Positions 14,999 to 58,883 of a stretch of 64,000 nt of DNA are shown here, piece after piece. Within the stretch, counting starts at the first letter, position 1; every line of letters starts with the position of its first letter. Location of the stretch: NCBI RefSeq assembly GCF_044324875.1, contig NZ_CP172185.1; one strand, given 5' to 3'. The notes beneath the pieces are model-generated. The model had not been told where the DNA came from. It made no database searches and saw only the letters and a list, made by a program, of their open reading frames with translations. A program made the translations under genes and the position numbers. The stretch comes from Escherichia coli (GTDB lineage: Bacteria > Pseudomonadota > Gammaproteobacteria > Enterobacterales > Enterobacteriaceae).

Positions 14999-15973
14999 TT
15001 AGTTAACCTTCACCAGCGTGCGACCCTGGATCTGGTTATTAATGATGGCCTCGGCAAACTTCGGTGCCTCTGCCAGAGATATCTCTTTTGCCGCCTGGGT
15101 ATAGAATGATTCCGGTAAATCGGCGACCAGTCGCTGCCAGGCTTGTGCGCGGCGTGCTGGTGGCGTCATCACTGAATCCACCCCCTGTAAACGGACATTA
15201 CGCAGAATAAATGGCATGACCGTGGTTGGCAGAGTAAAACCACCCGCCAGACCACAGGCCGCCACGCAGCCGCCGTAATTCATTTGCGCCAGCACTTTTG
15301 CAAGCACTTTGTCGCCAACGGTGTCAATTGCCCCAGCCCAGACTTGTTTTTCCAGAGGACGGGATTCGGCAAACTCATCGCGAGGGAGAATACGGCTGGC
15401 TCCTAAACTTTTCAGATATTCATGGGTACTTTCGCGACCAGAAACGGCAACGACCTGATAACCCAACTTATGCAGCAGCGCCACGGCGGTACTGCCGACG
15501 CCACCACTGGCACCCGTCACGACAATCTCCCCATCCTGCGGGCGAACACCGGCATCTTCCAGTGCCATCACACACAGCATGGCGGTAAAACCGGCAGTAC
15601 CGATAATCATTGCTTTACGCGCGTCCAGCCCTTGCGGCATGGCAACCAGCCAGTCACCTTTCACTCGCGCCTGCTCCGCCAGCCCACCCCAGTGGTTTTC
15701 ACCAACGCCCCAGCCAGTGAGTAATACGTCCTGACCGGCATGAAAACGCGGATCTTCGCTGGTGCGTACAGTTCCGGCAAAATCGATCCCAGGAATCATC
15801 GGAAAATTACGGATGATTTTTCCCTTACCGGTAATCGCCAGCGCATCTTTGTAGTTCAGGCTCGACCAGTGAACATCAACCGTGACATCGCCCTCCGGCA
15901 GGCAACTTTCGTCCAGAGTCTTTACCGATGCGAGAGTTTTGCCGTCCTGCTGTTCTAAAAGTAACGCCTGCAT
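14999..15973 (-). CDS. acuI: Acrylyl-CoA reductase / quinone oxidoreductase-like (YhdH)
   Basis: ORF track 14999..15973 (324 aa) MQALLLEQQDGKTLASVKTLDESCLPEGDVTVDVHWSSLNYKD...; MDR-superfamily, nucleotide-binding GASGGVGS. Confidence 0.9.
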   Translation of the reverse strand: MQALLLEQQDGKTLASVKTLDESCLPEGDVTVDVHWSSLNYKDALAITGKGKIIRNFPMIPGIDFAGTVRTSEDPRFHAGQDVLLTGWGVGENHWGGLAEQARVKGDWLVAMPQGLDARKAMIIGTAGFTAMLCVMALEDAGVRPQDGEIVVTGASGGVGSTAVALLHKLGYQVVAVSGRESTHEYLKSLGASRILPRDEFAESRPLEKQVWAGAIDTVGDKVLAKVLAQMNYGGCVAACGLAGGFTLPTTVMPFILRNVRLQGVDSVMTPPARRAQAWQRLVADLPESFYTQAAKEISLAEAPKFAEAIINNQIQGRTLVKVN

Positions 15974-16124
15974 AAGTGGTCCTCATGTGCATGATGGATT
16001 GGAAAATAATTTCTGAAGACTATACTCGCTAATGGAAAAGCAAAGCCGATGAAGCGCAATAAATTGCGAGATAAATCTGATTTGCTAGTATGCCCGCTTC
16101 CTCACTATCGGAGTTAACACAAGG

Positions 16125-18065
16125 ATGAGATTAACGACGAAATTTTCGGCCTTTGTTACGCTGCTCACCGGGTTAACAATTTTTGTGACTTTGCTGGGCT
16201 GTTCGCTAAGTTTCTACAATGCCATTCAGTATAAGTTTAGTCATCGCGTTCAGGCGGTGGCGACGGCAATTGATACCCACCTTGTGTCGAATGACTTCAG
16301 CGCATTAAGGCCACAAATTACCGAATTAATGATGTCGGCAGATATCGTTCGTGTAGACCTGCTGCATGGTGATAAACAGGTATATACCCTGGCCAGAAAT
16401 GGAAGTTATCGTCCGGTTGGCACCAGCGATCTGTTTCGCGAACTGAGCGTTCCGTTGATAAAGCATCCGGGGATGTCGCTGCGTCTGGTTTATCAGGATC
16501 CGATGGGCAACTATTTCCATTCGTTGATGACCACCGCGCCGCTCACGGGGGCGATTGGCTTTATCATTCTTATGCTCTTTCTGGCGGTACGCTGGTTACA
16601 ACGGCAACTTGCCGGGCAAGAATTGCTGGAAACCCGGGCTACTCGTATCTTAAACGGTGAGCGTGGCTCTAATGTTTTGGGAACCATCTATGAATGGCCG
16701 CCCAGAACCAGCAGTGCGCTGGATACGCTGCTTCGTGAAATTCAGAACGCACGCGAACAACACAGCCGTCTTGATACGCTGATCCGCTCTTATGCCGCCC
16801 AGGACATGAAAACCGGCCTCAATAACCGACTCTTCTTCGATAATCAGTTAGCAACGTTACTGGAAGATCAGGAGAAAGTAGGTACCCACGGGATCGTGAT
16901 GATGATTCGTCTTCCGGATTTCAATATGTTGAGCGATACCTGGGGGCACAGCCAGGTTGAAGAACAGTTCTTCACTCTGACGAATCTGCTGTCGACATTT
17001 ATGATGCGCTACCCTGGCGCACTGCTGGCGCGTTACCACCGCAGTGATTTTGCTGTGCTGTTACCGCACCGGACGTTAAAAGAGGCAGAGAGCATCGCCG
17101 GTCAGTTAATCAAAGCCGTCGATACCTTGCCGAACAATAAAATGCTCGATCGCGACGATATGATCCACATTGGTATCTGCGCCTGGCGTAGTGGTCAGGA
17201 TACCGAGCAGGTAATGGAACATGCAGAGTCTGCCACGCGTAATGCGGGATTGCAGGGCGGCAATAGCTGGGCTATTTACGATGACTCGTTGCCTGAAAAA
17301 GGACGCGGTAATGTTCGCTGGCGTACGCTTATCGAGCAAATGCTCAGTCGCGGCGGCCCGCGCCTTTATCAAAAACCGGCGGTTACTCGCGAAGGTCAGG
17401 TTCATCATCGCGAACTCATGTGCCGCATCTTCGATGGTAACGAAGAGGTTAGCTCGGCGGAGTATATGCCGATGGTCTTGCAGTTTGGCTTATCGGAAGA
17501 GTATGACCGCCTGCAAATCAGCCGTCTTATTCCACTATTGCGTTACTGGCCTGAGGAAAATCTGGCGATTCAGGTTACTGTTGAGTCGCTGATTCGCCCG
17601 CGTTTTCAGCGTTGGCTGCGAGATACGTTAATGCAATGTGAAAGATCGCAACGAAAACGCATAATTATTGAACTTGCAGAGGCCGATGTAGGTCAACATA
17701 TCAGTCGCTTACAACCTGTTATTCGTTTAGTGAATGCTTTAGGGGTACGGGTAGCCGTCAACCAGGCTGGTTTGACGCTGGTAAGCACCAGTTGGATCAA
17801 AGAACTTAATGTTGAGTTACTCAAGCTCCATCCGGGGCTGGTCAGAAACATTGAGAAGCGAACGGAGAACCAGCTGCTGGTTCAAAGCCTGGTGGAAGCC
17901 TGCTCCGGGACCAGCACCCAGGTTTACGCCACCGGCGTGCGTTCGCGAAGCGAGTGGCAGACCCTGATTCAGCGCGGTGTTACAGGTGGGCAAGGGGATT
18001 TTTTCGCGTCCTCACAGCCACTTGATACTAACGTGAAAAAATATTCACAAAGATACTCGGTTTAA
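16125..18065 (+). CDS. csrD: CsrB/CsrC sRNA decay regulator (degenerate GGDEF-EAL protein)
   Basis: ORF track 16125..18065 (646 aa); N-terminal TM segments; length and position (divergent from acuI, upstream of mreB) match CsrD; ATG confirmed at 16125. Confidence 0.92.
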   Translation: MRLTTKFSAFVTLLTGLTIFVTLLGCSLSFYNAIQYKFSHRVQAVATAIDTHLVSNDFSALRPQITELMMSADIVRVDLLHGDKQVYTLARNGSYRPVGTSDLFRELSVPLIKHPGMSLRLVYQDPMGNYFHSLMTTAPLTGAIGFIILMLFLAVRWLQRQLAGQELLETRATRILNGERGSNVLGTIYEWPPRTSSALDTLLREIQNAREQHSRLDTLIRSYAAQDMKTGLNNRLFFDNQLATLLEDQEKVGTHGIVMMIRLPDFNMLSDTWGHSQVEEQFFTLTNLLSTFMMRYPGALLARYHRSDFAVLLPHRTLKEAESIAGQLIKAVDTLPNNKMLDRDDMIHIGICAWRSGQDTEQVMEHAESATRNAGLQGGNSWAIYDDSLPEKGRGNVRWRTLIEQMLSRGGPRLYQKPAVTREGQVHHRELMCRIFDGNEEVSSAEYMPMVLQFGLSEEYDRLQISRLIPLLRYWPEENLAIQVTVESLIRPRFQRWLRDTLMQCERSQRKRIIIELAEADVGQHISRLQPVIRLVNALGVRVAVNQAGLTLVSTSWIKELNVELLKLHPGLVRNIEKRTENQLLVQSLVEACSGTSTQVYATGVRSRSEWQTLIQRGVTGGQGDFFASSQPLDTNVKKYSQRYSV

Positions 18066-18243
18066 CCTGCCGTTTAATCCGTTTTCACGTAGAATAACGC
18101 GCGCTGCGTCTCATGGGAGTGTGCTTGTCTGCTCGCCAGATTGTTGCAGCACATATGCAGATGAATGACCTTACGCGGTTGCAAACAGGCGAGGAATGCT
18201 GCTGATGCATTAAGCCTTTCTGGACTCAGGCAGAGATTTGTAA

Positions 18244-19413
<1,170 letters not shown>

Positions 19414-19478
19414 TCGGATGCAGGCAGGGGAAGCGTCTGTTTACCCTGCCTGGTCTGATACGAGAATACGCATAACTT

Positions 19479-21070
<1,592 letters not shown>

Positions 21071-41421: not shown

Positions 41422-41515
41422 TGGCCTAAGTCCGAATCCAGCCTCTTTTCCTTCTCACTACAGCATTATTCTCTGTAAACGGTATTTTCCTCGCACTATA
41501 GAAAAGGATATCGCG

Positions 41516-42310
41516 ATGGGATTTTTTAATACATTGTTTAATAAGAAAGAATCATTAACGCTGTCGAATAAATGGGAATTCTTTATTACCACGGTGGAAG
41601 ATAATGTAACGGGCATACGTGTAGATATTGGCGCAATTGAGGACGAAAAATTTGATCGTCTTATCCACACATGGTTTTTACGTGTCCGTTATACTGACTG
41701 TTATGAAAACGGTTTTCCGCAACCTGATGAAACACAGCGTTTAAATCGTATTGAGGACTGGCTTGAGGCGCAGGGTAAAACACTACCGATCTGGCTAGTG
41801 GGTGTGGTTACGCAACAAGGTTCACGCGATTTTGTTTTCCAGTCAGAAAAAGACCTGGACTGGGAAAAGACATTGGATAAATTGTTGGCAGGTGGCCCGG
41901 AGCTCGCTTGCAGCTTTAATGAGAGTAAAAACGACCACGGAAATTACTACCGCCAGTTTTTGTATCCAACCAAATACGACTGGAACTGGATACACGATTC
42001 CCGAGTATGCCGCGGGTTACTGGAGCATGGTGACGATTTGACTCTCCCACGCACCATCGATTATTACGCGACATTGCCGACAGAAACTGCGGCCCACGCC
42101 TTTGTGGAGGACGTGACGAAATTGCCATATGGCATCACGCTGGTGAGCATTCGGATGAACGACCAACAACCGGAGTATATGGCGTCATTGATTAACACTG
42201 ATGCTCCGGAACAATGGCATATGACCGATATCACATGCCAGCTTACCGATTTGGCGGAAAAGCATGGAGGTAGTTTTGATGGCTGGGGCGCACCGATAGC
42301 AACGGCATAA
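41516..42310 (+). CDS. Hypothetical protein, 264 aa; putative DUF695 (N-terminal) + RraB-like (C-terminal) domains; not present at this locus in K-12 as I recall it
   Basis: Long ORF 41285..42310 in track; the upstream part overlaps rpsI and its terminator, so start set at first ATG after the terminator (41516), which has an AAGGA RBS 7 bp upstream. Translation MGFFNTLFNKKESLTLSNKWEFFITTVEDNVTGIRVDIGAIED...LTDLAEKHGGSFDGWGAPIATA. Domain call is from motif resemblance by memory, not from a search. Confidence 0.8.
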   Translation: MGFFNTLFNKKESLTLSNKWEFFITTVEDNVTGIRVDIGAIEDEKFDRLIHTWFLRVRYTDCYENGFPQPDETQRLNRIEDWLEAQGKTLPIWLVGVVTQQGSRDFVFQSEKDLDWEKTLDKLLAGGPELACSFNESKNDHGNYYRQFLYPTKYDWNWIHDSRVCRGLLEHGDDLTLPRTIDYYATLPTETAAHAFVEDVTKLPYGITLVSIRMNDQQPEYMASLINTDAPEQWHMTDITCQLTDLAEKHGGSFDGWGAPIATA

Positions 42311-42578
42311 AGGTTTAAAACAACATTCCCGGTGGGGACTAAGTCAAGCATTTCAGACTAAAGCGCATCTCTTTTTCCCCATTTCCGGCATCGACTCACC
42401 ACAAAGGTCGCAAAATCTGGTAAACTATCATCCAATTTTCTGCCCAAATGTCGGGTATTGCTCATTTTTTGTTTAATTTTCGAACAAAGAGAGTCGTTCC
42501 TTACTGGGTAACACAACTTCTGACTGGCCACCTGGTGGCTGGTAGCAGTAAAAATTCTGACTATACCTGGAGGTTTTC

Positions 42579-43724: not shown

Positions 43725-43757
43725 AAAACAGGCCCTGGCGGCCTGTTTTGTCTTTTT
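43725..43757. terminator. Bidirectional intrinsic terminator between convergent sspB and dcuD
   Basis: aaaa-caggcc-ctggc-ggcctg-tttt(g)tcttttt. Confidence 0.85.
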
Positions 43758-43763
43758 AATCGC

Positions 43764-45131
43764 TTAATAAAATAGCGTGATAGTGGCAATCATATTCACC
43801 ACGAAACCGACTGCCATGGGGATCGCTGTCCGCTTCACTACCGCAAAAGGCGAAACGCCTGCAATTCCTGACGTAACGACCACCACCGCAGTAATCGGCG
43901 AAACAGCGCGCGCTAGCGTCGTGGCAAAATGCATCGGCATAATCATTACAACCGCTGGTACATGTAGTCCGGCTGCGATATTCGGAATAAGACTGGCAAA
44001 TGACATAAACGGCGCATTGCCTGAGCCCATCACAATGGCACAAATGGCAATGACCAGCGCCATAATAATCATCACGCCAATACCGCCCAGGCCAGAATGC
44101 TCCGCACCCCTGATAACCGCATCGACAGTGCCAATCGTCGTTAAGCCTTTCGCAAATATTTCACCCGCGACCACCAGCGTTACCACGTTGGCAAACTGCG
44201 TACCCATGCCGTCAAAAAACGCCTGCACATCGTCCATTGTTTCGCGCAAGTTATGCTTGCGGAAGAACTCAACAAACATCGTCACCGTCAAACTCAGTAA
44301 CATCACCACCACCAGATGCAGTTCTGACTGCATCAGCCCGACGTGGGCAAGGAACAGCGAGCCGAGCATCAGGATTAACGGCATCACAGGTAAAATGGCG
44401 TAATAGAGCGGCGGGACATTATCGAGAGCTTTTTGCTCTGCCTGTTCGTGATTGATATTTTTATCTTTTTTGTCGAAAGCGCGTTGCACGAAAAAGTGGG
44501 AGATCGCCACCGAGATAATGACGCAAGAGGCGACCGGAAGCTGGTAGTGGAAGAAGTAAGTGGCAATTTTCATTCCTGCTACCTGGGCAGCAAAAATGGA
44601 GTTCGTTTCCAGAATCCCCCACTCAATGGACATGGTGGTTGCGATAACCGCCACCGCAGAGAGACGACTTACTCCCAGACTCACCAGCGTCGGAAATAAG
44701 GTGACCATCAGCAACATACCCAGACCGGAGGCGCTGGTAATAAACTGCGCCATGATTTGGCCGATGACGTAAGTTGCCGACAGAATAATATACGGCGAGC
44801 GAATAAGTTTTAACGGGCGGCTTAACAAGCTCACCATCGCACGACTGGCCCCTATGCGCTCCATATAGCGGGCATAACCGCCCACTGCCATAATCGACAG
44901 CCCCAATCCGGCAATGCGGTTGGACAGCATGCGCAGGATTTCATTATAAATATCGACGATCAAGTAGCCGCTGCTTTTGGCGGGATCGAGCACACCACCG
45001 AACCCTAACCAGACACCGCACATCATCAGGAAGATACCTGCGGCAGCCAGCACCACCTGAGGTTTGTAGTTTTTCAGGATCAAATAGCCCATCGTAATTA
45101 ATACGATGACAGATATAATTATGCCGAACAT
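43764..45131 (-). CDS. dcuD: Putative C4-dicarboxylate transporter DcuD (DcuC family)
   Basis: ORF track 43764..45149; start set at [27 protein letters not shown] (455 aa); polytopic membrane protein; divergent from nanR. Confidence 0.9.
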
Positions 45132-45510
45132 TGTTGAACTCCGTGTCAAAAGAAAACGGTCAATCCCATAAACGGCAGATTGAAAACAATGATGTTATAT
45201 TTTTTGCAAGGCTATTTATGGTGCGGATGTCGTGTTTTTAATTGTAGATGAGGTGATTTTTCATTAAAAAATATGCGCTTATGATTATTTTGTAAGAACA
45301 CATTCATAATATTCATAATACTTGTTAATAGTCTTATGAATAATTCAATCGGGATGTTTTTATCTGCGTTACATTAATTTTTCGCAATAGTTAATTATTC
45401 AGTTAATTATAGTAATGATGAGGCACAAAGAGAAAACCCCGCCATTTCCCCCTACTTTCAATCCTGTGATAGGATGTCACTGATGATGTTAATCACACTG
45501 ACCTTACAGA

Positions 45511-46302
45511 ATGGGCCTTATGAACGCATTTGATTCGCAAACCGAAGATTCTTCACCTGCAATTGGCCGCAACTTACGCAGCCGCCCGCTGGCGCGTAAA
45601 AAACTCTCCGAAATGGTGGAAGAAGAGCTGGAACAGATGATCCGCCGTCGTGAATTTGGCGAAGGTGAACAATTACCGTCTGAACGCGAGCTGATGGCGT
45701 TCTTTAACGTCGGGCGTCCTTCGGTGCGTGAAGCGCTGGCAGCGTTAAAACGCAAAGGTCTGGTGCAAATAAACAACGGCGAACGCGCTCGCGTCTCGCG
45801 TCCTTCTGCGGACACCATCATCGGCGAGCTTTCCGGTATGGCGAAAGATTTCCTTTCTCATCCTGGCGGGATTGCCCATTTCGAACAATTACGTCTGTTC
45901 TTTGAATCCAGCCTAGTGCGCTATGCGGCTGAACACGCCACCGATGAGCAAATCGATTTGCTGGCAAAAGCACTGGAAATCAACAGTCAGTCGCTGGATA
46001 ACAACGCGGCATTCATTCGTTCAGACGTTGATTTCCACCGCGTGCTGGCGGAGATCCCCGGTAACCCAATCTTCATGGCGATCCACGTTGCCCTGCTCGA
46101 CTGGCTGATCGCCGCACGTCCAACCGTGGCTGATCAGGCTCTGCACGAGCATAACAACGTTAGCTATCAACAGCATATTGCGATCGTTGATGCGATCCGC
46201 CGCCACGATCCCGATGAAGCCGATCGTGCGTTGCAATCGCATCTCAACAGCGTCTCTGCTACCTGGCACGCCTTCGGTCAGACCACCAACAAAAAGAAAT
46301 AA
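45511..46302 (+). CDS. nanR: GntR/FadR-family repressor of sialic acid catabolism NanR
   Basis: ORF track 45511..46302 (263 aa) [76 protein letters not shown]... Confidence 0.96.
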
Positions 46303-46365
46303 TGCCACTTTAGTGAAGCAGATCGCATTATAAGCTTTCTGTATGGGGTGTTGCTTAATTGATCT

Positions 46366-46388
46366 GGTATAACAGGTATAAAGGTATA
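46366..46388 (+). promoter_or_regulatory. NanR operator: three direct GGTATA repeats in nanA promoter
   Basis: ggtataacaggtataaaggtata (GGTATA at 46366-71, 46375-80, 46383-88), about 36 bp upstream of nanA ATG; matches the known NanR-binding repeat. Confidence 0.85.
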
Positions 46389-46423
46389 TCGTTTATCAGA
46401 CAAGCATCACTTCAGAGGTATTT

Positions 46424-47317
46424 ATGGCAACGAATTTACGTGGCGTAATGGCCGCACTCCTGACTCCTTTTGATCAACAACAAGCACTGGATAAAGCGAG
46501 TCTGCGTCGCCTGGTTCAGTTCAATATTAAGCAGGGCATCGACGGTTTATACGTGGGTGGTTCTACCGGCGAAGCCTTTGTACAAAGCCTTTCCGAGCGT
46601 GAACAGGTACTGGAAATCGTCGCCGAAGAGGCGAAAGGCAAGATTAAACTCATCGCCCACGTCGGTTGCGTCAGCACTGCTGAAAGCCAACAACTTGCGG
46701 CATCGGCTAAACGTTATGGCTTCGATGCCGTCTCCGCCGTCACGCCGTTCTACTATCCTTTCAGCTTTGAAGAACACTGCGATCACTATCGGGCAATTAT
46801 TGATTCGGCGGATGGTTTGCCGATGGTGGTGTACAACATTCCTGCCCTGAGCGGGGTAAAACTAACCCTGGATCAGATCAACACCCTGGTTACGCTGCCT
46901 GGTGTCGGCGTGCTGAAACAAACCTCTGGCGATCTCTATCAGATGGAGCAGATCCGTCGTGAACATCCGGATCTGGTGCTCTATAACGGTTACGACGAAA
47001 TTTTCGCCTCTGGTCTTCTGGCGGGCGCTGATGGTGGTATCGGTAGTACCTACAACATCATGGGCTGGCGTTATCAGGGTATTGTGAAGGCTCTGAAAGA
47101 AGGCGATATCCAGACCGCGCAGAAGCTGCAAACCGAATGTAATAAAGTCATTGATTTACTGATCAAAACGGGCGTATTCCGCGGCCTGAAAACGGTCCTG
47201 CATTATATGGATGTGGTGTCTGTGCCGCTGTGCCGCAAACCGTTTGGTCCGGTAGATGAAAAATATCTGCCAGAACTGAAGGCGCTGGCCCAGCAGTTGA
47301 TGCAAGAGCGCGGGTGA
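46424..47317 (+). CDS. nanA: N-acetylneuraminate lyase
   Basis: ORF track 46424..47317 (297 aa) [52 protein letters not shown]... Confidence 0.97.
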
Positions 47318-47322
47318 GTTGT

Positions 47323-47357
47323 TTCCCCTCGCTCGCCCCTACCGGGTGAGGGGAAAT
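47323..47357. repeat. G/C-rich imperfect palindrome downstream of nanA (same family as 28647-28690)
   Basis: tttcccctcgctcgcccctaccgggtgaggggaaa; shares cccctcgc...cccct...gggtgagggg with the tldD-aaeR element; possible terminator/attenuator between nanA and nanT. Confidence 0.5.
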
Positions 47358-47425
47358 AAACGCATCTGTACCCTACAATTTTCATACCAAAGCGTGTGGG
47401 CATCGCCCACCGCGGGAGACTCACA

Positions 47426-48916
47426 ATGAGTACTACAACCCAGAATATCCCGTGGTATCGCCATCTCAACCGCGCACAATGGCGGGCATTTTCCGCTGCC
47501 TGGTTGGGATATCTGCTTGACGGTTTTGATTTCGTTTTAATCGCCCTGGTACTCACCGAAGTACAAGGTGAATTCGGGCTGACGACGGTACAGGCAGCAA
47601 GCCTGATCTCCGCAGCCTTTATCTCTCGCTGGTTCGGTGGCCTGATGCTCGGCGCTATGGGTGACCGCTACGGGCGTCGGCTGGCAATGGTCACCAGTAT
47701 CGTTCTCTTCTCGGTCGGGACGCTGGCCTGCGGTTTTGCGCCAGGCTACATCACCATGTTTATCGCGCGTCTGGTCATCGGCATGGAGATGGCGGGTGAA
47801 TACGGTTCCAGCGCTACCTATGTCATTGAAAGCTGGCCAAAACATCTGCGTAACAAAGCCAGTGGTTTTCTGATTTCAGGCTTCTCTGTGGGGGCCGTGG
47901 TTGCCGCTCAGGTCTATAGCCTGGTGGTTCCGGTCTGGGGCTGGCGTGCGCTGTTCTTTATCGGCATTTTGCCAATCATCTTTGCTCTCTGGCTGCGTAA
48001 AAACATCCCGGAAGCGGAAGACTGGAAAGAGAAACATGCAGGCAAAGCACCGGTACGCACAATGGTGGACATTCTCTACCGTGGTGAACATCGCATCGCC
48101 AATATCGTGATGACGCTGGCGGCAGCTACTGCGCTGTGGTTCTGCTTCGCCGGTAACCTGCAAAATGCCGCAATCGTCGCTGTACTCGGGCTGTTATGCG
48201 CCGCAATCTTTATCAGCTTTATGGTACAGAGTACGGGCAAACGCTGGCCAACGGGCGTAATGCTGATGGTGGTCGTGTTGTTTGCTTTCCTCTATTCATG
48301 GCCGATTCAGGCACTGCTGCCAACGTATCTTAAAACTGAACTTGCTTATAACCCGCATACTGTCGCCAATGTGCTGTTCTTTAGTGGCTTTGGTGCGGCG
48401 GTGGGGTGCTGCGTCGGTGGCTTCCTCGGTGACTGGCTGGGAACCCGCAAAGCGTACGTTTGCAGTCTGCTGGCCTCACAGCTGCTGATTATTCCGGTAT
48501 TTGCGATTGGTGGCGCAAACGTCTGGGTGCTCGGTCTGTTACTGTTCTTCCAGCAAATGCTTGGTCAGGGCATCTCCGGGATCTTACCGAAACTGATTGG
48601 CGGTTATTTTGATACCGACCAGCGTGCAGCGGGCCTGGGCTTTACCTACAACGTTGGCGCATTGGGCGGCGCACTGGCCCCAATCCTCGGCGCGTTGATC
48701 GCTCAACGTCTGGATCTGGGGACGGCACTGGGCTCGCTCTCGTTCAGTTTGACGTTTGTGGTGATCCTGCTGATTGGTCTGGATATGCCTTCTCGCGTTC
48801 AGCGTTGGCTGCGCCCGGAAGCGTTGCGTACTCATGACGCTATCGACGGCAAACCATTTAGCGGTGCCGTGCCGTTTGGCAGCGCCAAAAACGATTTAGT
48901 CAAAACCAAAAGTTAA
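47426..48916 (+). CDS. nanT: Sialic acid:H+ symporter NanT (MFS)
   Basis: ORF track 47396..48916; start set at [39 protein letters not shown] (496 aa). Confidence 0.95.
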
Positions 48917-48963
48917 TCCTGTTGCCCGGTCTCTGTACCGGGCCTTTCGCTAAGGGAAGATGT

Positions 48964-49649
48964 ATGTCGTTACTTGCACAACTGGATCAAAAAATCGCTG
49001 CTAACGGTGGCCTGATTGTCTCCTGCCAGCCGGTCCCTGACAGCCCGCTCGATAAACCCGAAATCGTCGCCGCCATGGCATTAGCTGCAGAGCAGGCGGG
49101 TGCGGTCGCCATTCGCATTGAAGGTGTGGCAAATCTGCAAGCCACGCGTGCGGTGGTGAGCGTGCCGATTATCGGGATTGTAAAACGCGATCTGGAGGAT
49201 TCTCCGGTACGCATCACGGCCTATATTGAAGATGTTGATGCGCTGGCGCAGGTGGGCGCGGACATTATCGCGATTGACGGCACCGACCGACCGCGTCCGG
49301 TGCCTGTTGAAACGCTACTGGCACGTATCCACCATCACGGTTTACTGGCGATGACCGACTGCTCAACGCCGGAAGACGGTCTGGCATGCCAAAAGCTGGG
49401 AGCCGAAATTATTGGCACCACGCTTTCTGGCTATACCACACCTGAAACGCCAGAAGAGCCGGATCTGGCGCTGGTGAAAACGTTGAGTGACGCCGGATGT
49501 CGGGTGATTGCCGAAGGGCGTTACAACTCGCCTGCTCAGGCGGCAGATGCGATGCGCCACGGCGCGTGGGCGGTGACGGTCGGTTCTGCTATCACACGTC
49601 TTGAACACATTTGCCAGTGGTACAACACAGCGATGAAAAAGACGGTGCT

Positions 49650-49653
<4 letters not shown>
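48964..49653 (+). CDS. nanE: N-acetylmannosamine-6-phosphate 2-epimerase
   Basis: ORF track 48922..49653; start set at ATG 48964 ([30 protein letters not shown]..., 229 aa). Confidence 0.95.
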
Positions 49654-50986
<1,333 letters not shown>

Positions 50987-51004
50987 AACTTAGTTCGTTT
51001 TAAA

Positions 51005-51031
51005 GATTCTCCAGACAGTGTCTGGAGAATT
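51005..51031. repeat. Palindrome gattctccagac-agt-gtctggagaatt in yhcH/yhcG convergent gap
   Basis: Perfect 11-bp arms (attctccagac / gtctggagaat) around a 3-nt spacer; related to the two palindromes inside yhcG (51761-51834). Confidence 0.7.
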
Positions 51032-51045
51032 CGAAACCGCTGAAA

Positions 51046-52134
51046 TTAACGGCGTCTATAGCCTTCCTCTAGCACCGCCTGTGTTCGAACGAGTTCATCT
51101 GCGAGTCGTTTCTCATCAGGTAGTTGCATCTTATATTCGCTTGCCAGAACGGTGTTAGGCAAACCTGCCAGAGCATAATGCGCTTCGCCGGCTCCTTTCT
51201 CTGCACAGAGAATCAGACCGATGGGCGGATTTTCATCCGGTAGCGTCCAGTGATCTTTGGCGTAGTTGAGATACATATTCATCTGTCCGGCATCGCTATA
51301 GCTGAATTTGCCCACTTTTAGATCGACGATTAGCAGGCAGCATAAACGGCGGTGGAAAAACAGCAGATCGACACGAAACCAGTTATCATCAATGCGTAAC
51401 CTTCGCTGCCGACCAACAAAGGCAAAATCATCCCCAAGTTCCAGCATGAAATCCATCAGGTGGTTGATCAGCGCCTCCTCGAAATCAGATTCTGAATATT
51501 CATCTTTCAATTCCAGAAATTCGAGCACAAAGGGATCGCGTATCGCCTGCTGCGGAAGAATATGCGTCTCGGTAGGAGCGTGTTGTTGCAGCATGGCTGA
51601 TTTGTCATGTGACAGTAGTGTTCGCTCATAAAATTGGGTCGCAATTTGCCGCTCTAGCTGGCGAACAGACCAGCCACAGCGGAGCGTCTCTTTTTCATAA
51701 AAGCTACGAGCGTCAGCGTTTTTAACAGAAAGCAAACGGACGTAAGTGGACCAGGGCCGGGGGAAAGATTTGGCAGACAGCGTCTGCCAAATCTTTCCCG
51801 ATGGGAATTCTGCAGACGGTGTCTGCGGAATTTCAACATGTTGAAAAAAGAGGTAAAAAAGTCTCATTTGGCGCAAGTTTTTTGCAGAGAACCCACGCTT
51901 ATACCTTAGACATAAATCCTTTGATAGTCGCTTGATTAGCTGCGCACCATACGCAGCCCTGGCCTCGCCACCTTGTTCAAATTCGACAATTCGTCGGCCA
52001 ATTTCCCAGTATGTCGCGGTCATCAGCGCGTTAACGCTACGTACCGTTTCCGTCCGGGCGCTATCGACCAGGTGAATAATACCGTCGTGGATTTGCTGGT
52101 AGCCTGTTGAGGTTCTCTCTGAGAGCGATTCCAT
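51046..52134 (-). CDS. yhcG: DUF1016-family putative PD-(D/E)xK nuclease YhcG
   Basis: ORF track 51046..52134 (362 aa) MESLSERTSTGYQQIHDGIIHLVDSARTETVRSVNALMTATYWEIGRRIVEFEQ...; ATG confirmed at 52134; convergent with yhcH. Confidence 0.85.
   Translation of the reverse strand: MESLSERTSTGYQQIHDGIIHLVDSARTETVRSVNALMTATYWEIGRRIVEFEQGGEARAAYGAQLIKRLSKDLCLRYKRGFSAKNLRQMRLFYLFFQHVEIPQTPSAEFPSGKIWQTLSAKSFPRPWSTYVRLLSVKNADARSFYEKETLRCGWSVRQLERQIATQFYERTLLSHDKSAMLQQHAPTETHILPQQAIRDPFVLEFLELKDEYSESDFEEALINHLMDFMLELGDDFAFVGRQRRLRIDDNWFRVDLLFFHRRLCCLLIVDLKVGKFSYSDAGQMNMYLNYAKDHWTLPDENPPIGLILCAEKGAGEAHYALAGLPNTVLASEYKMQLPDEKRLADELVRTQAVLEEGYRRR
51761..51834. repeat. Two adjacent palindromes inside the yhcG coding sequence
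   Basis: P1 51761-51799: gggaaagatttggcagac-agc-gtctgccaaatctttccc (perfect 18-bp arms). P2 51803-51834: gggaattctgcagac-ggt-gtctgcggaatttc (14-bp arms, 2 mismatches). Both share the CAGAC-N3-GTCTG core with the intergenic copy at 51005-51031. Confidence 0.8.
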
Positions 52135-52317
52135 TATCTGTCCCTTTATATGGCGCTGCGTTGAATAATGGAATCAGCTATACGCCGGGCATCTACCGGT
52201 AACAATCCAGATGTGCGTATTACATTGGTTTTCTTCAGATTATGCGAGGCGCTTTCCAGTACGAAAGGAGAATTTCAGCGCCGACTCTTTTCTGAGGAGG
52301 CGGCGCTGGGACAGAGT

Positions 52318-53748
<1,431 letters not shown>

Positions 53749-56700
53749 TTACTGCGCCTGCACGCGCAACTCTGCTGCGCTACGACTACGGTGACCCAGC
53801 AGTGCTTTTACATCACTGGACTTCGGTTTAACCAGCGCAAATTTAGTGGCGAAGGTTGACCAGTTCGCCAGAATCTCTTCACCACGCTGGGAACCGGTAT
53901 GCTGCACATGCTCGGTGATAAGTCCACGCAGATGCTCTTCATGGATCGCCAGATCGTCAACGCTTAAGACCTCGACCAGTTCCGGGTTAACGCGTTTGCG
54001 GAAATCGCCGCTTTCATCGAGAACGTAAGCGAAGCCGCCGGTCATGCCCGCGCCGAAGTTAACGCCGGTTTTACCGAGAATACAGACAATACCGCCTGTC
54101 ATATATTCACAGCCGTTGTCGCCAATGCCTTCTACCACGGTGATAGCACCGGAGTTACGCACGCCGAAACGTTCACCCGCGCGGCCTGCGGCATACAGAC
54201 GACCTCCGGTCGCGCCATACAGGCAGGTGTTGCCGATAATGCTTGCTTCATGGCTGCGGAAGGCTGAGCCAACCGGAGGACGAATGGCGATTAAGCCGCC
54301 CGCCATGCCTTTACCAACATAGTCGTTGGCATCACCGGTCAGGTACAGTTCCACGCCGCCCGCGTTCCACACGCCGAAGCTCTGGCCTGCGGTGCCGTTG
54401 AAGTACGCTTTGATCGGATCGGCTGCCAGACCCTGATCGCCGTGCGTCTGGGCGATATAGCCTGAAAGCGACGCGCCGACAGAACGGTCGGTGTTGCGAA
54501 TATCGAACCAGAAGGTTTTGCTCTGACGCTCATCGACAAACGGTTTTGCCTGTTGCAGCAACTGCGCGTTCAGCAGACCGTTATCAAACGGCGGGTTGTT
54601 TTCGGTGCAGTAAAGTGCCTTACCAGCATGCGGCTCGGCAGTCTCCAGCAGCTTCGACAGTGCCAGTTTCTGCTGTTTGGCGGTGAAACCGTCCAGCTCT
54701 TTCAGCAGGTCGGTGCGACCAATCAGATCCACCAGACGCGTTACCCCCAGTTGTGCCATCAGCTCGCGGGTTTCTCGGGCGATAAACTCAAAGTAATTAG
54801 TCACCTTGAACGGCAGGCCGTGATAGTGATTCTTACGCAGTTTGTCATCCTGAGTTGCAACACCCGTAGCGCAGTTGTTCAGATGGCAAATACGCAGATA
54901 TTTACAACCGAGCGCCACCATCGGGCCAGTGCCGAAGCCGAAGCTTTCTGCGCCGAGAATCGCCGCTTTGATGATATCGACACCCGTTTTCAGGCCGCCA
55001 TCAACCTGCAAACGAATTTTATGACGTAAACCGTTGGCAACCAGCGCCTGTTGGGTTTCCACCAGGCCGAGTTCCCACGGACAGCCTGCGTATTTCACCG
55101 ATGAAAGCGGACTTGCGCCGGTGCCGCCGTCATAGCCTGCGATGGTGATCAAGTCCGCATAAGCTTTCGCCACGCCAGTCGCGATGGTGCCGACGCCCGG
55201 TTCGGACACCAGCTTCACGGAGATCATCGCTTTCGGGTTAACCTGCTTGAGGTCGAAAATGAGCTGCGCTAAGTCCTCGATAGAATAGATATCGTGGTGC
55301 GGCGGCGGGGAGATCAGCGTCACGCCCGGCACCGAATAGCGCAGTTTGGCAATGTAAGGAGTGACTTTATCACCCGGCAACTGACCTCCTTCGCCCGGCT
55401 TCGCGCCCTGGGCGACTTTAATCTGAATCACGTCAGCATTGACCAGGTACGCCGGAGTAACGCCGAAGCGACCAGAAGCCACCTGCTTGATGCGCGACAC
55501 TTTGTTAGTGCCGTAGCGCGCCGGATCTTCACCACCTTCACCGGAGTTCGAGTTACCGCCGATGCTATTCATCGCTTCCGCCAGCGCCTCGTGGGCTTCC
55601 GGGCTTAACGCGCCGATAGACATCGCAGCGGTATCGAAGCGTTTAAACAGTTCGCTTGCCGGTTCAACATCGGCAATGTTGACTGCGTTTTCACCCGGCG
55701 TAATTGCCAGCAGATCGCGCAGCGTGGTTGCCGGACGCTCATTAACCAGCTTCGCGTATTCCTGATAGTCGCTGTACTCGCCGCTTTGTACCGCCTGTTG
55801 CAGCGTGCGCACCACGTCCGGGTTGTAGGCGTGGTATTCGCCGCCGTGGACGTATTTCAGCAGGCCGCCCTGGCTGATGGGCTTACGCGCCAGCCAGGCA
55901 CGTTTCGACAGGTTCAGCAGATCCTGCTGGAAGTCTTCAAAGCTTGCCCCACCAATGCGGCTGACCGCTCCCTGGAAGCACAGGCCCACTACATCATCGT
56001 GTAGACCGACCGCTTCAAACAGTTTCGAGCAGCGGTAAGAGGCGATGGTGGAGATGCCCATTTTGGACATGATTTTGTACAAGCCTTTGTTGATGCCGTT
56101 ACGGTAGTTCAGCATCACTGTACGATAATCTTTGGCAATCGCATGGGTGTCTACCAGGCGGCCCAGCGTTTCATAGGCAAGGTATGGATAAATAGCCGTC
56201 GCACCGAAGCCCAGCAACACGGCGAAATGGTGCGGATCGCGGGCGCTGGCGGTTTCGACGATGATGTTGGCATCGCAACGCAGGCTTTGATCGACCAGAC
56301 GGGTCTGGATCGCGCCAACCGCCATCGGGGCTGGAACCGGCAGGCGATCTTTAGCGATATTCCGGTCGGAGAGCACCAGCAGCACGGTGCCGCTACGTAC
56401 CATTTTTTCGGCTTTGTCACACAGCTCTTTGACCGTCGCTTCGAGCGTTGTTTTAGTGACGTCAAAGGTGATATCCAGCGTATCTGCGCGGTAGTGCTCC
56501 TCTTTCATCGTCGTGAGCTGTTTGAAATCGGAGTAGAGCAGAATCGGCGATTTAAAGCTTAAACGGTGCGCCTGGCCTTCTGCTTCACAGAAGACGTTCA
56601 TTTCACGACCGATACTGGTGGCGAGCGACATAACATGCGCTTCACGCAGCGGGTCGATTGGCGGGTTAGTCACCTGGGCAAATTGCTGGCGGAAGTAGTC

Positions 56701-58302
56701 GTAAATGATGCGTGGCTGACTGGAGAGCACGGCGAATGGGGTGTCGTCGCCCATCGAACCGACCGCTTCCTGACCGTTTTCGCCCAGCACGCGAATTACG
56801 GAGTCCAGCTCTTCCGCGCTGTAGTTAAACTGTTTCTGGTAGCTGGCAAGTGTGTCGTCGTCCAGTTCGCGGCTACCTACTTCTTCATCGGGCAGATCTT
56901 CAAACGGTACCAGTCGGCGGACGTTTTTCTCCATCCACTCTTTATATGGATGGCGGCTTTTCAGATCGTCATCGGTTTCTGCCGAGTGCAGAATACGCCC
57001 ACTGCGGGTGTCGATAACCATCAGTTCGCCTGGCCCGACGCGGCCTTTTTCGACCACTTCGTCAGGCTGGTAATCCCAGATACCGACTTCAGAGGCGCAG
57101 GTGATGAGCTTATCTTTGGTAATGACGTAGCGTGCCGGACGCAGACCGTTACGGTCGAGGTTACAGGCGGCAAAACGACCATCGGACATCACGATGCCCG
57201 CCGGGCCATCCCACGGCTCCATATGCATGGAGTTAAAGTCAAAGAAGGCACGCAGTTCCGGGTCCATATCCGGGTTGTTCTGCCAGGCGGGTGGCACTAA
57301 CAGGCGCATGGCACGGATGATATCCATCCCGCCTGCCAGCAGCAGTTCCAGCATGTTATCCATGGAACTGGAGTCAGAACCGGTTTCGTTGACGAACGGC
57401 GCGGCGTCGTGCAGGTCAGGGATCAGCGGCGTCTGGAATTTATAGGTACGTGCACGCGCCCATTGGCGGTTACCGGTGATGGTGTTGATTTCACCGTTAT
57501 GCGCCAGATAGCGGAACGGCTGCGCCAGCGGCCAGCGCGGTACGGTGTTAGTGGAGAAGCGCTGGTGGAACAGGCAGATGGCCGATTCCAGACGCAGGTC
57601 CGCGAGGTCCAGGTAGAAGCGCGGCAGATCCGCCGGCATACACAGACCTTTATAGATGTTCACCAGATTCGACAGGCTACAGACGTAGAAGTCTTTGTCG
57701 GCTTCGAGACGCTTTTCAATGCGGCGGCGGGCGATAAACAGACGGCGCTCCATATCGCGCGGACGCCAGCCTGCCGGGGCGTTCACAAAAATTTGCTCAA
57801 TGCGTGGCAGAGAGGAGAGGGCGATTTCACCCAGCACGCCTTCGTTAGTGGGGACATCACGCCAGCCCACAATCGACAACGTTTCGCGTTGCAGCTCTTC
57901 TTCAACGATGCGGCGTGCGGCAGCGGCGAGTTCAGGATCTTTATTCAGGAAGAGCATCCCGACGGCGTAGTTTTTTGCTAAACGCCAGCCGCGCTCCTGC
58001 GCAACGATGCGAAAAAAGCGATCCGGTTTTTGTAACAGCAAGCCGCAACCGTCACCGGTTTTACCATCGGCGAGAATCGCGCCACGGTGCTGCATGCGGG
58101 CCAGTGCGTGTATTGCAGTACGCACTACCTTGTGGCTAGGTTCGCCTTCTATGTGGGCGATCAGGCCGAAACCACAGTTATCCCTCTCAAGGGATTTATC
58201 GTACAACATATCGTGAACCTCCCCCAGGCTCTGCGGGAACCCCACTTCCGAACCGCTGCGCACGGGCACAGAAAGAGCGTGGCGACGGGGTTTGCGTGTC
58301 AT
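53749..58302 (-). CDS. gltB: Glutamate synthase (NADPH) large subunit
   Basis: ORF track 53749..58317; start set at MTRKPRRHALSVPVRSGSEVGFPQSLGEVHDMLYDKSLERDNCGFGLIAH (1517 aa; Ntn Cys after propeptide). Confidence 0.96.
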   Translation of the reverse strand: MTRKPRRHALSVPVRSGSEVGFPQSLGEVHDMLYDKSLERDNCGFGLIAHIEGEPSHKVVRTAIHALARMQHRGAILADGKTGDGCGLLLQKPDRFFRIVAQERGWRLAKNYAVGMLFLNKDPELAAAARRIVEEELQRETLSIVGWRDVPTNEGVLGEIALSSLPRIEQIFVNAPAGWRPRDMERRLFIARRRIEKRLEADKDFYVCSLSNLVNIYKGLCMPADLPRFYLDLADLRLESAICLFHQRFSTNTVPRWPLAQPFRYLAHNGEINTITGNRQWARARTYKFQTPLIPDLHDAAPFVNETGSDSSSMDNMLELLLAGGMDIIRAMRLLVPPAWQNNPDMDPELRAFFDFNSMHMEPWDGPAGIVMSDGRFAACNLDRNGLRPARYVITKDKLITCASEVGIWDYQPDEVVEKGRVGPGELMVIDTRSGRILHSAETDDDLKSRHPYKEWMEKNVRRLVPFEDLPDEEVGSRELDDDTLASYQKQFNYSAEELDSVIRVLGENGQEAVGSMGDDTPFAVLSSQPRIIYDYFRQQFAQVTNPPIDPLREAHVMSLATSIGREMNVFCEAEGQAHRLSFKSPILLYSDFKQLTTMKEEHYRADTLDITFDVTKTTLEATVKELCDKAEKMVRSGTVLLVLSDRNIAKDRLPVPAPMAVGAIQTRLVDQSLRCDANIIVETASARDPHHFAVLLGFGATAIYPYLAYETLGRLVDTHAIAKDYRTVMLNYRNGINKGLYKIMSKMGISTIASYRCSKLFEAVGLHDDVVGLCFQGAVSRIGGASFEDFQQDLLNLSKRAWLARKPISQGGLLKYVHGGEYHAYNPDVVRTLQQAVQSGEYSDYQEYAKLVNERPATTLRDLLAITPGENAVNIADVEPASELFKRFDTAAMSIGALSPEAHEALAEAMNSIGGNSNSGEGGEDPARYGTNKVSRIKQVASGRFGVTPAYLVNADVIQIKVAQGAKPGEGGQLPGDKVTPYIAKLRYSVPGVTLISPPPHHDIYSIEDLAQLIFDLKQVNPKAMISVKLVSEPGVGTIATGVAKAYADLITIAGYDGGTGASPLSSVKYAGCPWELGLVETQQALVANGLRHKIRLQVDGGLKTGVDIIKAAILGAESFGFGTGPMVALGCKYLRICHLNNCATGVATQDDKLRKNHYHGLPFKVTNYFEFIARETRELMAQLGVTRLVDLIGRTDLLKELDGFTAKQQKLALSKLLETAEPHAGKALYCTENNPPFDNGLLNAQLLQQAKPFVDERQSKTFWFDIRNTDRSVGASLSGYIAQTHGDQGLAADPIKAYFNGTAGQSFGVWNAGGVELYLTGDANDYVGKGMAGGLIAIRPPVGSAFRSHEASIIGNTCLYGATGGRLYAAGRAGERFGVRNSGAITVVEGIGDNGCEYMTGGIVCILGKTGVNFGAGMTGGFAYVLDESGDFRKRVNPELVEVLSVDDLAIHEEHLRGLITEHVQHTGSQRGEEILANWSTFATKFALVKPKSSDVKALLGHRSRSAAELRVQAQ

Positions 58303-58883
58303 ACGCGCGCCTCGCATTCGCCCCCTTGTTGTCCTTTTCGCATCGGTTAATACGGTGAAGAGGGGATCTCAATTACTGCATAAATATGATGAGCAGGCTG
58401 CTCATCCAGAAAGCTTCCAGCGGATTTCCAACTTATCGGGAAAGCTGATACAGGTCAAATGGCAAGCTTATTGGTACAGAAATGTGCTTTAGCGCAAAAT
58501 TCTTTATTAATTGGCTGAAATTAAAATAGATTTTCTATTTAAGGCTAAAAGGGAAGTCGTTAGAGAAACATCCAATTCCTGACTGTCATAAAGGCGTGTT
58601 AACCCTTATCCTGCCTTGAACTGACGAGAAAACCAGCATTTTATACTGCCTTAATTGGTAATGACGTTTCATGCTACTGTTTTTGCCTAAAATCCATAAG
58701 GAGATAAAAAAATCTGACACAAGATAAGCAAAAATGATTTATGTGATCATGCATGAAATTTCGGTAATTTTGATTGATTATGCAGTTGATAAAAGCGGGC
58801 CGGGACGATTGATCCAGGTCATCGCCGAATTGAGCTAAAAATGGCAGGCTTTGGCCTCTTTTCAAGGCGCGGTCTATCAGATT

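Follow-up and report, generated by a model that had tools for sequence, protein, structure and literature searches.

Organization of the gltD-yhcG region

The window analysed here, a 64-kb stretch of Escherichia coli DNA, carries on its minus strand the genes gltB (53749-58209) and gltD (52318-53736; 472 aa, stop codon at 52318-52320), which encode the large and small subunits of glutamate synthase, followed by yhcG (51046-52134; 362 aa). The nanQ gene (yhcH; 50522-50986) lies at the other side of yhcG on the plus strand, together with the rest of the nan operon, also on the plus strand. The three minus-strand genes are intact, as claimed in the original prediction. gltB is contained in a single ORF (53749-58317), for which a gap-free alignment with strain MS20645, whose gltB is annotated at positions 15432-19892 of the corresponding locus (L003), places the RefSeq-style start at 58209. 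GltD matches TIGR01318 over its full length (896 bits) and shares 99.2% amino acid identity with GltD of K-12, and YhcG contains the domains PF17761 and PF06250 (DUF1016_N and YhcG_C, a PD-(D/E)XK nuclease domain).

The ORF coordinates confirm that gltD and yhcG, both on the minus strand, are separated by only 183 bp (52135-52317). Position 52318, previously taken for the gltD start codon, proved to be the last base of its stop codon, the result of a strand slip: gltD runs from 53736 to 52318, so that the spacer joins the gltD stop to the yhcG start. This junction is not an assembly artefact, since an independent assembly from the SRA matches at 100% identity across 6089 bp that span it, and the exact YhcG and GltD proteins recur on about 165 E. 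coli contigs each, the listed NCBI accessions being consecutive. The predicted absence of gltF and yhcADEF from the window was also upheld, as tblastn searches of the whole 64 kb with K-12 queries (E≤1e-3) detected no homologues of GltF, YhcA, YhcD, or YhcF. In terms of the Yhc beta-class chaperone-usher locus, the usher gene (yhcD homologue) was not found under this threshold, and neither the chaperone (yhcA) nor the DUF1120 subunits (gltF, yhcF) had a tblastn match in the 64 kb.

The first 25 kb of the window share 99.1% identity with the best complete E. coli genome, and the region between 39 and 46 kb is 99.4% identical to strain MRY15-117. In contrast, the nanA-gltB stretch (46000-58400) reaches at most 97.2% identity to any of 5426 complete E. 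coli genomes and diverges from MRY15-117 by 2.4-6.9% per kb. The gltD-yhcG junction thus falls within a stretch of unusual divergence, the strain being in other respects an ordinary E. coli, and the sequence of the nanA-gltB segment looks like that of a diverged import or of an unsampled allele. Differences from K-12 and B2 strains were also observed at two other places: a DUF695-family gene is located between rpsI and sspA (41438-42335), and a dcuC-like transporter gene (43764-45149, minus strand) occupies the region between sspB and nanR (43750-45509). Both are annotated in MRY15-117, which identifies them as known accessory inserts.

Comparison with the K-12 arrangement

The MG1655 record shows the order gltB-gltD-gltF-yhcA-yhcD-yhcE::IS5-yhcF-yhcG(-nanQ), in agreement with the order given in the original prediction. 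With the fimbrial block lying between gltD and yhcG in that record, the possibility that the two genes are adjacent in K-12 as well can be set aside, and the strain is indeed not K-12-like at this junction, where K-12 has a block of ~7.1 kb.

Homology to K-12, as determined by BLAST, ends at 52318, i.e., at the gltD stop codon, and restarts at 52257. The 60 bp in between (52258-52317, read on the minus strand), which contain the hairpin described below, have no K-12 counterpart, and K-12 carries at this site 7086 bp comprising gltF-yhcA-yhcD-yhcE::IS5-yhcF. The 123 bp upstream of yhcG are 75.8% identical to K-12, with identities of at least 90% confined to the last ~50 bp. Thus, when the junction was checked against the K-12 sequences flanking both sides of the block, as had been proposed, a match was obtained on the yhcG side (the 123 bp, at only 75.8% identity), but not on the gltD side, where homology ends at the stop codon. 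The junction is therefore not composed of K-12 sequence from both flanks, given that positions 52258-52317 lack any K-12 match.

Distribution of the junction in E. coli and other genera

The frequency of each allele was surveyed in a sample of 5426 complete E. coli genomes. The 183-bp junction of the window was recovered as a full-length match (at least 80% query coverage, 95-99.5% identity) in 3139 of them, including E. coli B derivatives, O104:H4, and O157:H7. The junction query hit 4297 places in 4296 matching E. coli genomes, that is, about once per genome. The K-12 gltF-yhcA segment was present at a coverage of at least 80% in 1123/5426 genomes, and it was at least 99% identical in 1288 of the 1293 genomes with any match. 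In a further allele, found in 947/5426 genomes (e.g., Nissle 1917), gltD is followed after 67 bp by nanQ, with neither the K-12 block nor yhcG, and a single palindromic unit is retained between the two genes. The window thus represents the majority state of E. coli and K-12 a minority one. This polymorphism was already known from published work: Yhc was classified among the "sporadic" and "highly under-represented" fimbriae by Wurpel et al. (PMC3559732), in a set of ETEC strains the yhc locus was restricted to phylogroup A (PMC5216030), and BL21(DE3) has been described without gltF beside gltBD (PMC6150544).

Outside E. coli, two Escherichia species share this junction and have an identical hairpin, namely E. 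albertii and a second species that is 92.5% identical to the window. The order gltB-gltD-(180-210 bp)-yhcG, all on one strand, is likewise found in Pseudocitrobacter, Salmonella, Citrobacter koseri, C. freundii, Kluyvera, Superficieibacter, and Citrobacter sp. ANG330. The YhcG proteins of these seven lineages are 77-82% identical, and the gene located after yhcG differs among them. The other genera were reached via YhcG homologues; a search of genome contigs with GltD yielded at least two Escherichia loci. In an alignment of the spacers of six lineages plus K-12, that of the window was collinear with those of E. albertii, the second Escherichia species, Pseudocitrobacter, Salmonella, and C. 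koseri, sharing with them the order hairpin, conserved boxes, promoter-like hexamers 17 nt apart, and yhcG start. Synteny was observed in four further lineages beyond the aligned spacers, and overall the window arrangement is shared by no fewer than eight other lineages, which belong to six genera.

A conserved stem-loop downstream of gltD

The inverted repeat noted in the original prediction is present, with arms at 52276-52283 and 52301-52308, and forms a GC-rich stem-loop (52276-52308, minus strand) that begins 9 nt after the gltD stop codon. Its 8-nt arms are perfectly complementary, and extended arms of 12 nt contain one mismatch. In an 86-nt context, the predicted fold comprises the 8 perfect and 3 inner pairs, with a free energy of -23.2 kcal/mol. 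This is only moderately better than shuffled sequences (z = -1.97), 7 out of 200 of which folded as well.

Comparison across lineages revealed a stem-loop located 9-16 nt after the gltD stop in 10/10 lineages, the distance to yhcG being variable. Escherichia and Pseudocitrobacter have a common CAGCGCCG stem; another, GGCUCCCC, is common to Salmonella, C. koseri, Kluyvera, Superficieibacter, and Citrobacter sp. ANG330, and C. freundii exhibits a canonical intrinsic terminator with a T-run at the same post-gltD position. RNAalifold analysis of five other genera yielded 16 consensus pairs, 6 of them with compensatory double changes. No consensus structure was obtained with all ten post-gltD hairpins, for which MAFFT cannot bring the stem families CAGCGCCG and GGCTCCCC into register. 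The stem is invariant within Escherichia, so the covariation support comes solely from other genera with a different stem sequence. The hairpin is thus a conserved element downstream of gltD, and not the scar of a junction.

The Escherichia hairpin is followed by AAAUUCUCCUUUCG, which does not constitute a U-tract (at least 5 U in the 8 nt directly after the stem), and a scan of 51900-52500 for consensus promoters and terminators returned 0 sites. When 50900-52500 was compared with Rfam, the sole matches were to two miRNAs at chance level, both on the palindrome inside yhcG. Position and compensatory changes suggest that the stem-loop is probably a 3' structural element of the gltBD transcript, which would mark or stabilise the 3' end of the mRNA as a leaky terminator or as an exonuclease barrier. 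Owing to the lack of a U-tract in Escherichia, either of these roles is more likely than that of an efficient intrinsic terminator. Read-through from gltBD into yhcG is plausible.

The same lack of a U-tract would also fit a protein-binding operator or attenuator for yhcG, or a neutral palindrome, neither of which would act as a transcript 3' element. Such alternatives, which we regard as less probable although worth serious attention, gain from the conservation of the sequence following the hairpin (AAATTCTCC / ATATTCCTC) and from the conserved boxes situated between the hairpin and the promoter-like site of yhcG. However, it is the distance to the gltD stop that is conserved and the distance to yhcG that varies. 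Moreover, the stem sequence has been replaced across genera while pairing was kept, which points to an RNA or DNA structure and away from a sequence-specific operator, and the site is occupied in C. freundii by an intrinsic terminator of the canonical type. These data favour the 3' element of the gltBD transcript.

The yhcG upstream region

The region upstream of yhcG (52135-52259, minus strand) was delimited in the spacer alignment of the six lineages and K-12. Two blocks are conserved across genera, CTGGAAAGCGCCTCGCA (52243-52259) and AATGTAATAC (52217-52226). They are followed on the minus strand by a promoter-like pair of hexamers, TTGTTA (52200-52205) and TATAGC (52177-52182), separated by 17 nt and proposed on the basis of position and conservation only, and by a Shine-Dalgarno-like AAGGGA (52141-52146). 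Thus, the order on the minus strand is gltD stop, 9 variable nt, stem-loop, boxes, TTGTTA-17-TATAGC, ribosome-binding site, and yhcG start. According to this arrangement, yhcG would be transcribed from its own predicted promoter, possibly supplemented by read-through from gltBD. An antisense transcript, G0-10703, has been described in the yhcF-yhcG spacer of K-12 (PMC7967276). This annotation was not transferred to the window, because the sequence that carries it is specific to K-12 and shows a similarity of only 60-76% to the window.

YhcG matches the PADLOC candidate defence family PDC-S02 (E = 3e-133). For a putative defence gene, its position is unusually stable, being fixed after gltBD and on the same strand in at least six genera at 77-82% protein identity. 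This stable adjacency hints at a housekeeping role of YhcG or at a coupling to gltBD.

Palindromic units in and around yhcG

Palindromes of a second kind, sharing the core CAGACNNNGTCTG, occur three times in the window versus 0.03 expected by chance, all within 830 bp. Two of them are found inside yhcG, at 51761-51799 (with perfect 18-bp arms) and 51803-51834, where they encode ..QTxSA.. motifs; the third member of the same CAGACNNNGTCTG family (51002-51036) lies in the intergenic spacer where yhcG and nanQ converge, and recurs at the corresponding position of K-12 and of the second Escherichia species. The in-gene unit lies at the same codon position of yhcG in 7/7 other genera. Base pairs beside the core of the unit swap between G-C and C-G, altering the encoded residues on both sides. 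K-12 has three copies, whereas the window has two, as do Pseudocitrobacter and the second Escherichia species. A single copy is present in Salmonella, Citrobacter, Kluyvera, and Superficieibacter. This copy number (1-3) accounts for the YhcG length classes of 349, 362, and 375 aa. Indeed, YhcG of the window is 13 aa (39 bp) shorter than its K-12 counterpart, corresponding to one palindromic repeat unit fewer, with the reading frame intact.

The end-points of several rearrangements were observed to coincide with palindromic units in and around yhcG. In E. albertii, the 3' part of yhcG is deleted and a hybrid unit is left (L005 3440-3520). In E. coli B (L004 5467-5990) and ETEC, yhcG is truncated within a unit, beside a gene for a 101-aa "transposase". 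The left edge of the K-12 block shows a unit 13 nt after the gltD stop (L001 1618-1660), and a single unit lies between gltD and nanQ in the allele of the B2 strain lacking yhcG (L003 13934-14000). When the K-12 gltD-gltF spacer was searched by tblastn for a remnant of yhcG, only weak matches were obtained, confined to the palindromic unit. A link to hairpin-targeting transposases through the 101-aa "transposase" of E. coli B was considered and discarded as unsupported, since this protein has no Pfam or NCBIfam match.

The units are kept in the yhcG frame in at least eight genera and amplified to 2-3 copies in Escherichia, and the post-gltD unit lies 13 nt after gltD both in K-12 and in B2 strains. 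A tentative and rather doubtful proposal would be that these 26-39-nt units are active rearrangement hot spots, or sites of a DNA-binding or recombination activity (conceivably that of YhcG itself), and that they gave rise to the main alleles found here, the borders of the K-12 island and the B2 allele lacking yhcG among them.

Origin of the two arrangements

The reading that best accommodates these data, to which we assign a probability of roughly 0.9, is that 52135-52317 constitutes the native, ancestral gltBD-yhcG spacer and that the K-12 lineage carries an acquired fimbrial block replacing the stem-loop. Conservation of the junction across genera, together with the low GC content of the K-12 block (43.1%, and 32% in its gltD-gltF spacer, compared with 51.5% in the window), argues for the window arrangement being ancestral and that of K-12 derived. 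Likewise, the prevalence of the window type in E. coli and its occurrence in other genera indicate that it is K-12 that carries an insertion. Hence, the K-12 block is derived, and was probably acquired horizontally. In the proposed sequence of events, the K-12 lineage would have received by horizontal transfer a beta-class chaperone-usher block, gltF-yhcADEF, of ~7.1 kb including IS5. The block would have landed after the gltD stop codon and ahead of the ~125 bp closest to yhcG, displacing the stem-loop contained in the 60 bp at 52258-52317.

The initial description of a "missing block" therefore has its polarity reversed, since the arrangement without the block is that of most E. coli and is shared by other genera. 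Its accompanying statement that the junction holds no obvious remnant describes what is to be expected when K-12 carries the insertion. A deletion of gltF-yhcADEF from a K-12-like state, in this strain or recently in its ancestry, with the 183 bp as the deletion junction, is very unlikely. Relative to K-12, ~7.1 kb are absent and both flanking genes are intact, and other lineages do show deletions at this locus: yhcG is truncated in E. albertii, and some genomes have lost part of the K-12 block. Nevertheless, the whole junction is collinear with the gltD-yhcG spacers of other Escherichia and of six other genera, and the 60 bp adjoining gltD, being absent from K-12, cannot be a remnant derived from it. 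In addition, the K-12 block is both low in GC and nearly invariant, and the window type is the one held by the majority of genomes.

It is also very unlikely that the hairpin was left or is used by a mobile element, whether as a scar or as a site (REP/BIME, MITE end, or attachment site), or that yhcG and its upstream region form a recently inserted cassette bounded by the hairpin. In favour of this reading, YhcG belongs to a candidate defence family, the locus is structurally variable in E. coli, and yhcG is flanked by palindromes of another kind. However, the hairpin has one copy in the 64-kb window and no Rfam match, and the junction occurs about once per genome. In the plasmid collection, near-full-length matches (at least 93% identity) were limited to three E. 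coli records, of which two measure ~4.9 Mb and the third, of 354 kb, contains gltD as well; beyond them only distant homologues of at most 74% identity were found. Furthermore, the maintenance of hairpin position and yhcG adjacency across genera, with YhcG 77-82% identical, fits vertical descent.

Two further observations concern the history of the long allele. Homologues of gltF, yhcA, yhcD, and yhcF were found directly downstream of gltD in Enterobacter asburiae (L012 11467-17543) and Enterobacter cloacae (L013 12009-15919), with 31-59% amino acid identity, in opposite orientation and without yhcG. They suggest that the post-gltD site has hosted beta-class fimbrial clusters repeatedly, or for a long time. 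These distant, inverted homologues may thus reflect an old association of the fimbrial cluster with the site, which counts against the insertion model. Directly after gltD, K-12 shares ~72% identity over its first ~72 nt with the sequence at the same place in a Pseudocitrobacter MAG lacking yhcG. The two are collinear over 13 nt, the unit, and ~35 nt (L001 1618-1690 in K-12, L011 11417-11640 in the MAG), and the MAG allele then runs on into REP elements and nanQ. This likeness at the left edge suggests that the history of the K-12 long allele is more complex than a single clean insertion.

Significance and comparison with known systems

The gltD-yhcG junction is real, but it is also ordinary, common, and already known. 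Its main message is one of caution, namely that K-12 should not serve as the template for interpreting other genomes. Both the "gltBDF operon" and the cryptic yhc cluster are peculiarities of K-12 and phylogroup A, whereas the core order in Enterobacteriaceae is gltBD followed by yhcG, from which it follows that gltF cannot be part of the glutamate synthase operon in most E. coli. Any regulatory coupling downstream of gltD would then involve yhcG, which encodes an uncharacterised protein with a PD-(D/E)XK nuclease domain. The stem-loop after gltD and the stable synteny of gltBD with yhcG offer small leads that can be tested, but no discoveries.

Compared with the yhc locus of K-12, the window shares the flanking genes gltB, gltD, yhcG, and nanQ, as well as ~125 bp upstream of yhcG that are recognisably homologous (75.8%). 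In contrast, all five fimbrial genes are missing from the window, and K-12 lacks the hairpin, having in its place a CAGAC...GTCTG palindromic unit 13 nt past the gltD stop. The closest resemblance is to other non-K-12 E. coli, as E. coli B/BL21(DE3), O157:H7, and O104:H4 C227-11 possess the 183-bp junction at 95-99% identity with the same gene order and strand. They differ in the length of YhcG (370 or 375 aa versus 362 aa in the window) and, in the case of E. coli B, in the truncation of yhcG, and the alleles of the window are unusually diverged from theirs.

Regarding the stem-loop, the Escherichia hairpin departs from a canonical terminator, whose definition it fails, in having no U-tract and a loop of 9-17 nt. 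Nevertheless, it resembles rho-independent terminators and 3' stabilising stem-loops in being a GC-rich stem-loop that follows the final stop codon of an operon at a distance of a few nucleotides and, like the 3' stem-loops of enterobacteria, the hairpin at this position is conserved in location and accompanied by compensatory changes.
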